DNA from: a virus
Lineage: Duplodnaviria > Caudoviricetes
Virus record (IMG/VR): IMGVR_UViG_3300021399_000103
Coordinates: 1-64,000 of that record
Length of the DNA stretch: 64,000 nt
Reading direction: 5' to 3' (one strand)
Part shown: positions 160 to 15,326 of the stretch, piece after piece
How positions within the stretch are numbered: position 1 is the stretch's first letter
Layout: the number at the start of each line of letters is the position of its first letter
Notes under the pieces: generated by a model
Told to the model about the DNA's origin: nothing
What the model saw: the letters and a program-made list of their open reading frames with translations, nothing else
Database searches by the model: none
Translations under genes and position numbers: made by a program

Positions 160-492
160 TTAGGCGACCGTGAAGATGGTAGCCTTGCCGTCCTTAGCCT
201 TGACGACCTCGCCACTGTCGACCATCTGCTTGAGCAGAGCAGAAGCCTTCTGAACGGAGACGTCAACCGCCTTGCCTACTGCGGTGGCAGTCATGCCCTC
301 AGAATCAGCGAGCACGTCGAGCATCTGAGCCTTGATGCCCTCGTTCTCCTTCTGAACCTTGGTAGGCTTGCGTTCACCTGTGGACTTGCGGACGGACTTC
401 AGTGCTCTCTCAACGAGGAAGTTGAACTGCTCTTCTGTGAGTGTGTCGAATGCGATAGCGTTGATCTGTTCTGTAATAGTTGTCTTTGTCAT
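160..492 (-). CDS. winged helix-turn-helix protein (paralog 1 of 3)
   Basis: KPTKxQxxN...HTH (SVQKASALLKQMV)...wing pattern shared with 1797-2150 and 3754-4095. Own TTGACA/TATTAT promoter and AAAGGT RBS. Confidence 0.75.
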   Translation of the reverse strand: MTKTTITEQINAIAFDTLTEEQFNFLVERALKSVRKSTGERKPTKVQKENEGIKAQMLDVLADSEGMTATAVGKAVDVSVQKASALLKQMVDSGEVVKAKDGKATIFTVA

Positions 493-5578: not shown

Positions 5579-5762
5579 TTCAAATTTACCTCACTTTTTA
5601 CTCTTAAATTATAGCATTTTCAAATGAAAAGTCAACCCAAAATTTAGGGATTTTTAAAAATAAAATCAAAATAAAATCAAAAAATCACTTGACATTTGGC
5701 GGGCTGATGTGGTATAATTTTCTATCGTTAGCGGGAACTAACTGCCTGGGCGCATAAAAAAA

Positions 5763-6170
5763 TCAACCCCACAGTTCAGCAGGATTGATTGCTTTTCCTC
5801 TCCAAGAGTTGCGGATAGGTTCAGAATCATCGACAAGAATTGCATTTTCAGAATTTTTCAAATTCTTGTTATGACCATACGCTCTGTAAATTCTTTTTGT
5901 GATTGAAGGGAAGAATTTATCGAGCCATTCATTCTTTTTTTCAATGACTTTATCACAGTATTCTTTACTTGCGTTTAATGGCGTCATACTCAGAACTCTT
6001 ACATCATACTCATCAGAAGGGAAGAAGATTCTCAGTGTTTCTTCTGTGATGATTCTTCTATCACCACCGAATACCTCAGCATCCTCAGCACGCAATTTTT
6101 CAAGCCATCCATCCTGACCATACAGATCGAAGATTGTTCCATCCATGTCTAAGTAAACGATTTTTCTCAT
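5763..6170 (-). CDS. HAD-superfamily phosphatase (5'/3'-nucleotidase-like)
   Basis: Motif I LDMDGTIFD and motif IV ILVDD. Ends in TGA. Confidence 0.75.
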   Translation of the reverse strand: MRKIVYLDMDGTIFDLYGQDGWLEKLRAEDAEVFGGDRRIITEETLRIFFPSDEYDVRVLSMTPLNASKEYCDKVIEKKNEWLDKFFPSITKRIYRAYGHNKNLKNSENAILVDDSEPIRNSWRGKAINPAELWG

Positions 6171-8094: not shown

Positions 8095-8321
8095 TTTTAT
8101 TACCTCTCTTTATTTACATTATTATTATAGCTTGTTTAAATTAAATGTCAATAGTTTTGGGAAAATTTTTTTCGGGAAATTTAAAAAAATTTTTTTAATT
8201 TTTTTGTTTTTTCCTCTTGACTTCTGGCTTCGTGCGTGGTATAATTTTCTGCCGTTAGCGGTGACTAACTCACTTGTGAATGTGATAACTTTCACAAACT
8301 TTCGCACAAAAAAAACAGAGG

Positions 8322-8450
8322 TTAGAACTCAACCCAGTTGGGATCTCCCTCTGTTTTCTCAAGGAACGCTTCCTCAACGATTTCCTTGGACTCAGCACTG
8401 ATTTCCAGTACTTCGAACGTTACAACGTTAACCCACATTTTTCTAAACAT
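8322..8450 (-). CDS. small acidic protein (42 aa, MFRKMWVN...)
   Basis: Hand-translated; promoter + GAGG RBS. Confidence 0.6.
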   Translation of the reverse strand: MFRKMWVNVVTFEVLEISAESKEIVEEAFLEKTEGDPNWVEF

Positions 8451-10114: not shown

Positions 10115-10303
10115 TTTTTTACCTCTCTTTTATTTACATTATTATTATAACATAATTATTTAAATTGTCAATACTTTATTTTTAGGAATTTTTATAAATT
10201 TTTTTATTTTTTTCATATTTTTCTCTTGACATTGCGGCCGGAGTGTGGTATAATTTTTCGACCCGTTAGCGGTAGCTAACTGCGCAAATAAAAAGCCTAT
10301 TAA

Positions 10304-10483
10304 TTAGGCAAAGAAATCTTTCATTGAAGGATGAGTAAACAAGACGTGATCCATTCCGATTTCATCAATGAATTCTTTGAAATCTTCAAAATCTTCCTCT
10401 CCATCAAAATCTTTTTCCGTGTATTCCTTAACCATAGGGAATTCATCTTCGTAAGCATCAAACAGAACTTTAAACAATGTCAT
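10304..10483 (-). CDS. highly acidic small protein (59 aa)
   Basis: Hand-translated; 18 of 59 residues are D/E. Confidence 0.65.
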   Translation of the reverse strand: MTLFKVLFDAYEDEFPMVKEYTEKDFDGEEDFEDFKEFIDEIGMDHVLFTHPSMKDFFA

Positions 10484-11326: not shown

Positions 11327-11517
11327 TTTATCACCTCTTTCTTTTTACACTTATATAATATCATCTTTATTTTATTTGTCAACACTTATTTTTAGGAAAA
11401 TACATAATTTTTTAAAATTTTTTTTATTTTTACTCTTGACTTCTGGCGTTGGATCTACTATAATTTTCTGCCGTTAGCGATAACTAACTCCGCAGATAAA
11501 AAAATAAACCTTTCGGT

Positions 11518-11673
11518 TTAGTAGTTTTCCCAAATTTCTTTGATAAACTTTTTGTCGTCAAGATCAGCGTCCCAACCATACTCACAAGTGATTTGATTGA
11601 TTCCTGACATGAATGCTTTCCATTCTTCTTCATTTAATTCCATGATTGCTTTTACGATTTCTTCTCTTTTCAT
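11518..11673 (-). CDS. small acidic protein (51 aa)
   Basis: Hand-translated; three Trp, all TGG. Confidence 0.6.
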   Translation of the reverse strand: MKREEIVKAIMELNEEEWKAFMSGINQITCEYGWDADLDDKKFIKEIWENY

Positions 11674-11905: not shown

Positions 11906-12147
11906 GTTTATTTCCTTCTTTCTTTTTACACTTATATAATAGCACCAGTTTCTTAAATGTCAACACTTTTTTGCAATTTTTTTAAAAAATTTTTTAGTTA
12001 GTTAGTCTAAACTAACTTAGCTGACTTTTGGGATCTCACACTTGTGAAAAAATTCACAAACTCTCGCAACGCTTTTATGCTTTAGTGCGCTAAAGTGCAA
12101 TTTTCTGCCGTTAGCGGCAGCTAACTAAAGCTAATAAAAAAACTGCC

Positions 12148-12267
12148 TTAGCAGTAGTTTTTTACAACTCTTACCAGTTTCCCGAACTGTTTTTCGTGGA
12201 ATCTGATTTCAGCCTTATTCAGTTTTCTTGCGAGTGCCTCGCCTCTTTCGAAGATGTAAAGTGTCAT
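12148..12267 (-). CDS. 39-aa protein, paralog of 9569-9688
   Basis: MTLYIFERGEALARKLNKAEIRFHEKQFGKLVRVVKNYC. Confidence 0.75.
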   Translation of the reverse strand: MTLYIFERGEALARKLNKAEIRFHEKQFGKLVRVVKNYC

Positions 12268-12357
12268 TTTGTATTTCCTCCTATTTCTTTTTACACTTAT
12301 ATAATAGCATCTTTATTTTTCTTGTCAATGCCTTTTTTAATTTTTTTTAGATTTTTT

Positions 12358-12434
12358 GATAAGCTCCTATGCAACTCCTATTGGATTGCAGGTCTGTCGC
12401 CCCTCGGCTATCCGACTCGCTCTCGGAGCTTATC
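12358..12434 (-). ncRNA. candidate small multi-branch RNA
   Basis: Perfect 10-bp closing stem GATAAGCTCC/GGAGCTTATC enclosing two hairpins; dedicated promoter; no ORF. Confidence 0.5.
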
Positions 12435-12676
12435 TCCCTTTATCTGTAATAATTATAGCAAATCCTCAGCGAATGTCAACACTTCTGAAGAAATTTTTTT
12501 AACAAATTTTAGTTAGTTAGCTTAAACTAACTTGTTAACTTGTGAATGTGATAACTTTCACAAACTCTGGTTAGTTTAAGCTAACTAACTTCATTGATTT
12601 AACGTGCTAAAGTTAGTTAGCCTAAACTAACTCAACTGACGCTTGTGAATTTTTTCACAAATGCTCCCGAAAAAAA

Positions 12677-12886
12677 TCAGGCTTGCCATTCGGCTACAGC
12701 CTGTCTGTACATCTCAGCCATTTTTGGAAACCCATGGCGATCAAGTTTTCTTGATTCGCACATAGCCCATTCAACGAACGGCCATTCGTCTTCCAGGAGA
12801 AGGCTCTCTTCGAGATCTTCCTGGTAGCAGTTCCAGATGTTGAGCATTACACGCTCATGGTAGTTCAATTCTTCGGCAAACATCAT
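12677..12886 (-). CDS. acidic protein, paralog of 13097-13312
   Basis: FAxELNxHExxMLNIW...AEWQA; ends in TGA. Confidence 0.75.
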   Translation of the reverse strand: MMFAEELNYHERVMLNIWNCYQEDLEESLLLEDEWPFVEWAMCESRKLDRHGFPKMAEMYRQAVAEWQA

Positions 12887-13096
12887 TTTGTATTCCTCCT
12901 TTATTTACCTTACACTATTATTATAGTCTTTTCTAAAAAGATGTCAACTAGTCTGAATAAATTTGTCGGTATTTTTTTAACTTTTTTTTGATAGTTATGA
13001 AAACTTTTTCATTGTGAATTTTTTCACAAGTTTACTCGCAATAGATCAGCCATTGAACTTGTGAAAAAATTCACAAGTTCTCCCAAAGAAAAACCG

Positions 13097-13312
13097 CTAG
13101 GCTTGCCATTCAGCTAATGCCATGCGGTAATCATCGGCGTATTCAGCCATGTCCTCAGATTCGTAGAACTCGATCTCGTCTCTGAGCCAATCAGCGAAGC
13201 CGTAATCCTCATCGACGTCATCGAGCAAGCCGTCGAAGCTAGCTGCCCAATACTCCATCCAGATGTTGAGCATTTTCTGCTCATGTGCGTTTAATTCAGC
13301 GAAACCTAACAT
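13097..13312 (-). CDS. very acidic protein (possible DNA mimic)
   Basis: About 30% D/E and aromatic-rich. Ends in TAG at the residue where its paralog ends in TGA. Confidence 0.75.
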   Translation of the reverse strand: MLGFAELNAHEQKMLNIWMEYWAASFDGLLDDVDEDYGFADWLRDEIEFYESEDMAEYADDYRMALAEWQA

Positions 13313-13573
13313 TTTTATTTCCTCCTATTTATCTTACACTTATTATTATAGTTATTTAGGTCTTGATGTCAACACTTCCGGCAAAAAAAATCACTTTTTT
13401 TCGCATTTTTTTTATTCACATTTTGAAAATGTTTTCATAAGTTTTACTAATAGATAGTTAGTTAGTCTAAACTAACTCGACAACTTTATAACTTTTACCT
13501 AGTTAGTTAGTCTAAACTAACTGCACTGAATCTTGTTCATTAACGCTTGTGAAAAAATTCACAAATTCACCCG

Positions 13574-13600
13574 TTAGCACTCAACCACTGAGAGTGCTAA
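13574..13600. promoter_or_regulatory. CIRCE element (HrcA operator)
   Basis: TTAGCACTC-AACCACTGA-GAGTGCTAA, exact consensus. Confidence 0.92.
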
Positions 13601-13905
13601 CGCACGGACTTTAATACATTAAAGTATTAAAGTTAGTTAGTCTAAACTAACTCTTCACCGCTTTAACGCACTAAAGTTAGTTAGCCTAAACTAACTGGTC
13701 GTACTTGTGAAAAAATTCACAAACTTTCCCGGCGAGTCACAAACATTCTCTGATTAGCTTGTGAATTTTTTCACAAATGAACCGCCCTGGCTCAGCCATT
13801 CCAAAAGAGAAACTTTGTGAAAAAATTCACAAATGAATAAGTTTTAATTATTCTTACTTTGTGAAAAAATTCACAAGTTCTCTCGCCTTGCCCAAGACCT
13901 GGCGA

Positions 13906-13932
13906 TTAGCACTCACTGCCTGCGAGTGCTAA
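13906..13932. promoter_or_regulatory. CIRCE element (HrcA operator)
   Basis: TTAGCACTC-ACTGCCTGC-GAGTGCTAA, exact consensus with a different spacer. Confidence 0.92.
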
Positions 13933-14094
13933 CACGCACATTCTAGCACACCTTACTCGATTTGTCAAGTGCTTTCGGGAATTTTTTATAAAAAATTTTT
14001 TTACAAATTTTTCTTGACTTTTTTGGTGGTGTGTGCTATACTGGCTAAACTTGCGCCGCCACACCCGCAGCCGGCGCAGGGACGCCTTTGTGGT

Positions 14095-15000
14095 GTAGCT
14101 GTAAGTAGTGTAAATATTAGTGTTGTGCTATTACTGTTACATTACTATCACTGTTGGTTATCTCTTCTCTTCTCTTCTTCTCTTGTTGTGCTATCTCTTA
14201 CTCTTGCTGTGTTGTCTATCTATCTATCTGTTAGTATGTATGTATACTGTTGTAGTATAGTATGTAGTACTACACTACTACTTATCTACTACCTACTGTC
14301 TACTACTACTACTACTGTTAGTACTGTTGTTAGTGTGTGTTATCTATCTATTTACTTATCTATCTATCTATCTATTACTGTTAATGTATGTATCATACTG
14401 TGTGTATAGTATAGTGTATGTATGTATACTATACTATGTGTGTAGTATACTGTGTGTATGTGTATAGTATAGTACATAGTATGTATAGTATAGTATAGTG
14501 TATAGTATACTATGTATGTATGTATTGTTATTATGTTGTATTGTTGTTGTTGTGTGTATGTCTTTGTGTGTGTTGTTGTTGTTGCTTGTGTGTTGTGTGT
14601 GTCTTTACTGTGTGTGTCTCTCTCCTTGCTGACGTCCTGCCTGGCCGTGCCCTCTGCCTCCCTGCCTGTGCCTCTCTTTGTGCTTACTTTGTTGGTTGAG
14701 TGTTTGGTTAGATGTGGTTATTATTATTACTATTATTTATTAATAATGTTGTGCGCTGACAGTGTCCTCTGTGCTGCGTGTAGGTTAGCTGTGTGCGCTT
14801 ACAGCAAGCCTTTGTGCTGCCTTGATGACCCAACGCCGCAACTCTCTTCTCTTCCTTGTTGCCTGCGTGTGTCTCTTACTACACTACCTTGTCATGCTGC
14901 TTGTGTATCTATTGCTTTGCGTGTATTATTACTTATTCTCTTGGTTGTGTGCGCGTCTTTACTGCGCACACGCTGTTGATTGCGTTAAGACTCTTTAAGG
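14095..15000. repeat. low-complexity strand-asymmetric microsatellite-like tract
   Basis: Imperfect (TATC)n, (CTA)n, (TATAG)n, (TGT)n and (TG)n runs. Confidence 0.85.
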
Positions 15001-15326
15001 AAAAGGATTGCGTTGTTTGTGCTCTTGGTTTTCGTCTGCTGAATTGCTGTAATTGATTTATTGCGAAAAAACCGCTCGCCATGATTGTTCGCGGCCCTAC
15101 GATCTTTTTAGGACGGCCCGGGCCCTTCCATAGTGTCTCTACGCGTCAGATTTTGCTGACCCATAAGCTACCTTGTGTGTTTTTTCTCAGATGAAAAACC
15201 CGGGGGCGTACTTTCGGGAAAAAATTTTTCTTAAAGAGCTAAATCGTTTCGCTCTCCCCATTCCCCCCACTAAAACCTTCCCAATTTTGGGAAAACGACA
15301 AAAAAAGTAGTTCCTACTACGAACTA

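Follow-up and report, generated by a model that had tools for sequence, protein, structure and literature searches.

Predicted operators for several host repressors in a non-coding array of a ruminant-gut phage

Why would a phage carry about 2 kb of mostly non-coding DNA crowded with palindromes that read as operators of its host's repressors? The question is raised by positions 11996-13932 (hereafter the array) of the virus record IMGVR_UViG_3300021399_000103 (Caudoviricetes), a ruminant-gut phage record of 176,419 bp and 33% GC that encodes portal, virion and tail proteins; the window analysed here is the first 64 kb of this record. The array forms the promoter-proximal head of the leftward early region, a single block made up of bases 1 to about 13,970 and about 174.9-176.4 kb, and an initial annotation of the window had proposed it as a DNA sponge for host takeover. 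Our preferred reading is likewise that the array is a sequestration device for host repressors, to which we assign a probability of about 0.4. It builds on sequence identity, enrichment, conservation and the lack of phage homologues of the repressors, all of which were observed directly, and from these we infer binding, titration and a benefit to the phage.

Operator families and their conservation

Nine perfect copies of the Rex operator TTGTGAA-N4-TTCACAA were found in the array (starting at 12042, 12643, 13012, 13059, 13547, 13705, 13759, 13815 and 13859) and a tenth in the window at 1241, compared with 0.06 expected from shuffled sequence. Their spacer is invariably AAAA or TTTT, indicating that a single 18-mer is used in both orientations. 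Genome-wide, all 12 Rex boxes fell within the early region, which accounts for only 39% of the DNA outside long open reading frames (ORFs) under a loose definition of non-coding DNA (P about 1e-5 for this confinement). The controlling inverted repeat of chaperone expression (CIRCE, TTAGCACTC-N9-GAGTGCTAA), a consensus known from HrcA operons, occurred twice (13574-13600 and 13906-13932), each time with 18/18 matches and with unrelated spacers (0.04 in shuffles). The palindrome GTTAG-N6-CTAAC was present nine times in the array and 16 times in the window (0.08 in shuffles); most of these sites are a 22-bp element, AGTTAGTTAGYCTAAACTAACT, which has the same orientation in all but one case. Four (C/A)TTTA-N6-TAAAG and two cre-like TGAAAA-N2-TTTTCA sites complete the set, and all five palindrome families were far above chance relative to shuffled sequence. 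These counts reproduce those of the initial annotation in full, and its description of the array as mostly intergenic is fair, with three tiny genes (39, 69 and 71 amino acids (aa)) occupying 546 of 1937 bp. We also confirmed its densest part, 13456-13932 (477 bp), which contains 13 sites, no credible ORF and a single weak promoter at its edge.

The match to the Rex operator consensus (PMC6391272) and to the HrcA operator is exact, as had been claimed. Other proposed identities fared less well. The cre-like sites had been likened to CcpA boxes, an identity that was rejected: a central CG is invariant in cre (TGWAANCGNTNWCA), the two sites have CT or TG at this position, and the genome contains no cre match. 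The suggested DtxR-type box gained some support, since in many bacteria the GTTAG palindrome is found upstream of feoA, znuA and DtxR-family genes. A degenerate search with the 19-bp DtxR/IdeR consensus TWAGGTWAGSCTWACCTWA gave no matches. A panel of further motifs (LexA, Fur/PerR/Zur, CtsR, CodY, cre, NrdR, FapR, Spo0A and IdeR) found no match in the phage genome. Simple tandem duplication was ruled out as the origin of the array by the differing spacers, flanks and order of the sites, and RNase III-type processing sites were ruled out because stems of 7-11 bp are too short. The arms of the palindromes are all identical, with no compensatory changes or covariation in the stems, which argues for selection on sequence and not on mere pairing; if transcribed, the palindromes would fold at -7 to -19 kcal/mol. 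No tRNA was detected in the array, and Rfam returned spurious miRNA-type hairpin matches only, all below threshold.

Searches of the phage genome yielded no HrcA, Rex or Crp-type protein above threshold, no ParB_N domain and no Cpn10 (GroES); Cpn10 was also missing from the near-complete close relative G001 and from G002, so that no complementary pattern emerges. A perfect palindromic copy of the parS consensus (TGTTNCACGTGAAACA) is present outside the array, in an outlying cluster (1241-1310) that comprises the tenth Rex box (1241-1258), a GTTAGC-N6-CTAAC site (1276-1291) and the parS site itself (TGTTTCACGTGAAACA, 1295-1310). Because the phage has no Rex, HrcA or ParB of its own, the Rex, CIRCE and parS sites are in all likelihood filled by proteins of the host, and the simplest reading of two exact, conserved operators in such a phage is that host Rex and HrcA probably bind the array.

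The partner of the GTTAG sites is predicted less specifically. A search of one genome per species placed the palindrome, in the form AGTTAGTT-N4-CTAACTAACT, in more than 120 bacterial species of many phyla, always intergenic and nearly always as a single copy, and adjoining genes encode FeoA (10-11), DtxR-family proteins (4-13), ZnuA (4), HMA (3) and ABC ATPases, and also MarR (12) and TetR (8) regulators. This bacterial palindrome is probably an operator, for which no described regulator could be named, and the phage GTTAG-N6-CTAAC sites may be bound by a DtxR/MarR-type host regulator or by a small winged-helix protein of the phage itself. Two such proteins are candidate binders, a MarR-like protein of 110 aa (160-492, minus strand) and a protein of 116 aa with TrmB and DtxR-N-type matches (118.1 kb; L010 1390-1740, minus strand), both generic winged-helix proteins with no specific likeness to Rex or HrcA. 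The 116-aa protein has a 90% identical homologue in G001, and the 110-aa protein has homologues there with 46-48% identity. A blastp comparison of these phage proteins with the regulators adjoining bacterial AGTTAG sites gave one weak match (37% over 49 aa), too weak to name a binder. GTTAG-rich contigs of one Acutalibacteraceae metagenome-assembled genome, which share zero nucleotide similarity with the phage, provide a faint hint that this family could include the host.

The array is conserved in a characteristic manner. A 32-kb fragment of a diverged relative with the same layout (L005) keeps the Rex, AGTTAG, CTTTA and two CIRCE sites (one perfect, one 17/18), with CIRCE spacers, flanks and copy numbers that differ from those of the phage; CIRCE 2 is retained there though the neighbouring -10 of promoter 13968-13940 is lost, and Rex boxes again follow the stop codons of two terminator-less genes. 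In gut metagenomes of goat, cattle and sheep from several studies (2013-2025), the array recurs on contigs with 95-99% identity, and in four ruminant metagenomes just one of 23 listed single-nucleotide polymorphism positions in the non-coding parts fell in a half-site, with half-sites making up about 38% of the bases, a tally drawn from the best-supported 40 of 144 rows and therefore indicative only. The claim that half-sites are fixed and spacers and flanks differ thus holds in the relative and across strains. One cattle-gut strain is without two of the four Rex boxes at 13705-13876, which were lost via recombination between boxes. G001 has GTTAG sites and two parS sites 35 bp apart, G002 has GTTAG sites only, and L042 has one parS site. 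On the genomes compared, the GTTAG and TTGTGAA half-sites are lineage-wide, and the exact Rex spacing and CIRCE are accessory.

Operator arrays recur in other phages. A fragment of an uncultured phage (L029, 1-12459) contains 24 Rex boxes of the clostridial type TTGTTAA-N4-TTAACAA (consensus according to PMC9600882), 12 of them perfect, some with hybrid half-sites and mostly in pairs 33 bp apart, together with nine perfect LexA boxes and one CIRCE, all in early cassettes. Seven Rex boxes with unrelated spacers were found in L331. A single box was present in 112 of 116 tallied loci of the Rex-box scan, indicating that arrays are rare but recurrent. Perfect CIRCE sites were present in more than 112 viral contigs, including several orphan, multiple copies: four in tandem in L064 (5373-5549, spaced by about 49 bp, with no adjoining chaperone gene) and two each in L085, L107 and L113. 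The CIRCE sites of L064 alternate with GTTAGA-N5-TCTAAC at the head of an array of small-gene cassettes, each gene of which carries TTTAGATGTTnAACATCTAAA.

Sequestration and competing explanations

Under the proposed mechanism, host Rex and HrcA would occupy their exact operators in the cassette spacers, as would a host protein the parS site. Replication of the phage DNA would multiply the sites and soak up the repressors, and the loss of repressor would derepress the redox, chaperone and perhaps metal regulons of the host. A few sites would double as ordinary operators, namely the CIRCE at +1 of promoter 13968-13940 and the GTTAGC sites at +1 of five rightward promoters. We consider sequestration the most likely net effect because nearly all sites lie outside core promoters, many occur in gene-free tandem runs and their number varies between strains; the exact consensus and the many copies, far above chance, were also counted in its favour, as were the conservation seen in L005 and across strains and the comparable arrays of independent phages. 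Every identifiable partner of the array sites is a repressor. The centres of the Rex boxes are roughly 106-217 bp upstream of leftward transcription starts and thus do not overlap core promoters; relative to promoter 13968 they lie at +57 to +378. No Rex box is placed on, or just behind, a promoter that drives a redox or fermentation gene, and no redox genes are present. The statement of the initial annotation that there are more sites than adjacent genes could need is borne out, with most sites outside core promoters and 13 sites within 477 gene-free bp.

Several observations weigh against this reading. CIRCE 2 coincides with +1 of promoter 13968-13940, the geometry of a classical operator, with no chaperone gene downstream, and elsewhere in the early region a GTTAGC-N4-RCTAAC variant is found 9 nt past the -10 (+1) of five strong promoters that read rightward. 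G001 has neither a Rex box with N4 spacing nor a CIRCE and carries, at the same cassette position, four TTGTGAA-N10-TTCACAA sites, a spacing that should not fit a Rex dimer. The Rex core TGTGA-N6-TCACA is also that of Crp/Fnr, and a pure sink would not need all 12 Rex boxes confined to the early region. In phage contigs CIRCE often just precedes a chaperone gene, as judged from the ORFs flanking 111 viral CIRCE loci (23 Cpn10, 19 HSP20 and 5 HSP90). Finally, if the phage shuts off host transcription early, derepression of host genes would be pointless.

Much of this evidence would also suit a somewhat less likely but strong alternative in which the phage senses the state of its host: host repressors would control the phage, damping or insulating early transcription in unsuitable cells. 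Rex at low NADH/NAD+, HrcA when chaperones are free and a DtxR-type protein when loaded with metal would act as operators or roadblocks, and the host ParB system would carry the silent phage genome along. In phage phi29, host Spo0A boxes and five parS sites serve this very kind of control (PMC2731898), and the perfect parS at 1295, the two in G001 and the one in L042 fit this precedent. So do the four Rex boxes that follow, at about +57 to +228, the CIRCE at +1 of promoter 13968, the GTTAGC sites at +1 of the five rightward promoters converging on early genes, the Rex boxes that follow the stop codons of two terminator-less genes both here and in L005, and the placement of all Rex boxes within the early region. 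Sensing is harder to reconcile with the fact that no consensus leftward promoter is overlapped by a site, that L005 kept the CIRCE but not the -10 of promoter 13968, and that gene-free tandem runs are more than a promoter requires; moreover, LexA and HrcA bind in healthy cells, so that a virulent phage would be repressed just when growth is favoured. It is improbable that the palindromes are specific to the phage and only look like host sites, being bound, for example, by the 110-aa and 116-aa winged-helix proteins or acting as RNA or DNA hairpins that punctuate the cassettes. The joint coincidence of an 18/18 CIRCE and a 14/14 Rex consensus would be very unlikely on that account, in L029 the Rex half-site is replaced by the clostridial TTGTTAA and LexA boxes are added, the stems show no covariation, and no Rex-, HrcA- or Crp-type phage protein was above threshold; in its favour are the lineage-wide GTTAG and TTGTGAA half-sites in phages of 34-50% GC, the variable spacing of the TTGTGAA arms (N4 or N10), the two encoded MarR/DtxR-N-like proteins with homologues in G001, and the folding energies that the palindromes would have as RNA.

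More doubtful still is a cis-acting structural element, such as a T5-like injection-stop signal, an origin of replication or a site for partition or packaging, with bound host proteins serving as plug or scaffold. The pre-early region of T5 has 1.2 kb of untranslated repeats, palindromes and host DnaA boxes (bioRxiv 10.1101/866236), gene orientation turns and cumulative GC skew is lowest at the array, and the opposite end of the early region has a second palindrome cluster (172.8-174.9 kb). One would, however, expect an essential cis element to be conserved, whereas G001 is without Rex and CIRCE sites and strains lose boxes; furthermore, an AT-rich unwinding tract is missing from the array, the best candidate for one being at 173.08-173.35 kb, and the physical genome ends are not fixed by the contig.

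The sequestration reading can be extended to a tentative proposal of protein-free takeover that we regard as possible, with odds below even. A virus-borne sink with operators of several global repressors (Rex and HrcA, possibly a DtxR-type protein, and LexA in other phages) would strip these repressors as it replicates, so that redox, chaperone, metal and SOS regulons would rise with phage copy number, and such sinks would have evolved repeatedly in unrelated Bacillota phages. Our literature search found no paper on CIRCE or Rex decoys, on LexA titration or on the Rex regulon in phage infection, and no description of a virus-borne array for several repressors.

Layout of the early region

The early region is of the host-takeover type, with repeated cassettes and consensus sigma-A promoters: dozens of perfect TTGACA-16/17-TATAAT promoters each precede a tiny gene. 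Read leftward, a cassette consists of palindromes, an AT-rich tract, a consensus promoter, a gene of 39-71 aa and then a terminator or a Rex box. The array sits where gene orientation switches and cumulative GC skew reaches its minimum. Positions 1-126 of the record are identical to 176290-176415 (a contig-end overlap of 126 bp), suggesting that the 'linear' record is probably a circular assembly and that the physical ends are not given by the contig; the suggestion of the initial annotation that the array may enter the cell first therefore gains no support. Near-DNA, distant-DNA and protein searches of INPHARED gave no match to the phage, a search for relatives with the 71-aa early protein found none, and no Pfam family was assigned to the small proteins neighbouring the array.

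The array begins with a 22-bp AGTTAG palindrome (AGTTAGTT-N6-AACTAACT, 11996-12017), centred at about -77 relative to promoter 11963-11936, followed by a perfect Rex box (12042-12059), a CTTTAG-N4-CTAAAG palindrome (12080-12095) and GTTAGC-GGCA-GCTAAC (12110-12125), the operator/hairpin part of a decayed rightward promoter-hairpin module whose -10 is deleted. The 39-aa early gene (12148-12267, minus strand) has a bidirectional terminator (12137-12163) and promoter 12328-12301. Behind promoter 12479-12452 lies a candidate small structured RNA with no ORF (12356-12440, minus strand, about 85 nt), predicted to form a closed stem (-31.7 kcal/mol, folding z-score -4.3) and with no Rfam match. Upstream of this promoter are an AGTTAG palindrome (12511-12532, centre at about -77), a TTGTGAA-N10-TTCACAA palindrome (12540-12563) with the spacing used throughout G001, the sole AGTTAG palindrome in the opposite orientation (12569-12590), and an ATTTAA-N4-CTAAAG site overlapping a further AGTTAG palindrome (12597-12632, the latter at 12611-12632). 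A perfect Rex box (12643-12660) lies 17 nt past the stop codon of the 69-aa early gene (12677-12886, minus strand, promoter 12947-12920), a paralogue of the gene at 13097-13312. Beyond its promoter follow the cre-like site TGAAAA-CT-TTTTCA (12998-13011, at about -91), which is without the central CG of cre, a perfect Rex box (13012-13029) and another with 11-bp arms (13055-13080, box at 13059), about 17 nt past the stop codon of the 71-aa early gene (13097-13312, minus strand, promoter 13372-13345), which has homologues in L005 and G001. The second cre-like site, TGAAAA-TG-TTTTCA (13424-13437, about -91 for promoter 13372), is missing in one sheep-gut strain.

The dense, gene-free part comprises two AGTTAG palindromes (13456-13477 and 13501-13522), a perfect Rex box (13547-13564), CIRCE 1 with arms extended to 11 bp (13572-13602, consensus 13574-13600) and no adjoining promoter or chaperone gene, a CTTTAAT palindrome (13608-13633), an AGTTAG palindrome (13631-13652), a CTTTAA-N4-CTAAAG palindrome (13661-13676), another AGTTAG palindrome (13675-13696), four perfect Rex boxes spaced by 44-56 bp (13705-13876; 13705, 13759, 13815 and 13859) and CIRCE 2 (13906-13932). 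The latter begins 8 nt past the -10 of the sigma-A-like promoter TTGACA-17-TAGAAT with TG (13940-13968, minus strand), which reads leftward into the array and whose -10 is not conserved in L005.

The five strong rightward promoters with CGTTAGCGGNNRCTAACT 9 nt past the -10 are located on the plus strand at 2464-2516, 5689-5790, 8217-8330, 10226-10309 and 11436-11530. Four of the five meet a terminator within about 50-100 nt, and the fifth (2464) is followed by a second promoter and then a rightward gene. The group may represent antisense promoters under operator control or a small-RNA family converging on early genes. On the other side of the array, about 1.2 kb of purine-poor, T-rich, low-complexity DNA without a credible gene (14040-15300, plus strand) is found downstream of promoter 14014-14042 and a conserved GC hairpin (GCGCCGCCACAYCCGCAGCCGGCGC). 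Promoter and hairpin are both present in L005, which was the sole match in a pattern search with the hairpin. The second palindrome cluster (172.8-174.9 kb of the record; L123 2800-5000), which closes the early region on its far side, has two TTGTGAAAATTTTCACAA sites flanking about 300 bp of almost pure AT sequence that is a candidate origin, and further holds GTTAG, CGCTTTAACGCGTTAAAGCG and four GTTTAGT-N3-ACTAAAC sites; its layout is mirrored in L336.

Comparison with known systems

Few cases of host-protein sites on virulent phage genomes are known, namely the Spo0A boxes and parS sites of phi29 and the DnaA boxes of T5. In phi29 and Nf, host Spo0A boxes and parS sites are carried on the genome of a virulent Bacillus phage, where their shown role is repression and spore entrapment (PMC2731898). 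As there, a lytic phage here carries sites for several host DNA-binding proteins, parS included, and encodes none of these proteins; in phi29 the few promoters are bordered or overlapped by the sites, whereas here the sites are far more numerous, in tandem and mostly off core promoters, and the predicted partners are Rex, HrcA and a DtxR/MarR-type factor. Repeat region 3 of T5, associated with the injection stop, likewise combines repeats, palindromes and host-protein sites in a kb-scale non-coding patchwork within a pre-early region of small genes and host-type promoters (bioRxiv 10.1101/866236). T5 uses one host factor (DnaA) and its element is found in all T5-like phages, whereas here operators of several repressors are present and the content varies among close relatives. 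The Rex and CIRCE/HrcA operators of Bacillota share the identical consensus, and, as is seen in groE and dnaK operons, one CIRCE occupies +1 of a sigma-A-type promoter; unlike in Bacillota, no redox or chaperone genes are downstream, most sites are off promoters, and copies per kb are far above those of host regulons.

In the present data, dense arrays with exact operators of conserved global repressors turn up in several uncultured phages that are unrelated to one another. Should these arrays be sinks, this would be a new phage route to host reprogramming by DNA alone; should they be sensors, redox, proteostasis and metal status would be read by large lytic phages directly via host repressors. 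In either case, operator content may serve as a predictor of the host and as a basis for the design of phage-borne decoys. In E. coli, the datA locus titrates DnaA. Synthetic repeat arrays have been used as transcription-factor decoys (PMC3322331). Like these decoys, the array is a cluster of sites without a regulated gene that would be able to buffer or titrate a factor; the known examples, however, are cellular or synthetic and directed at a single factor, whereas the array described here is virus-borne and predicted to address several repressors.

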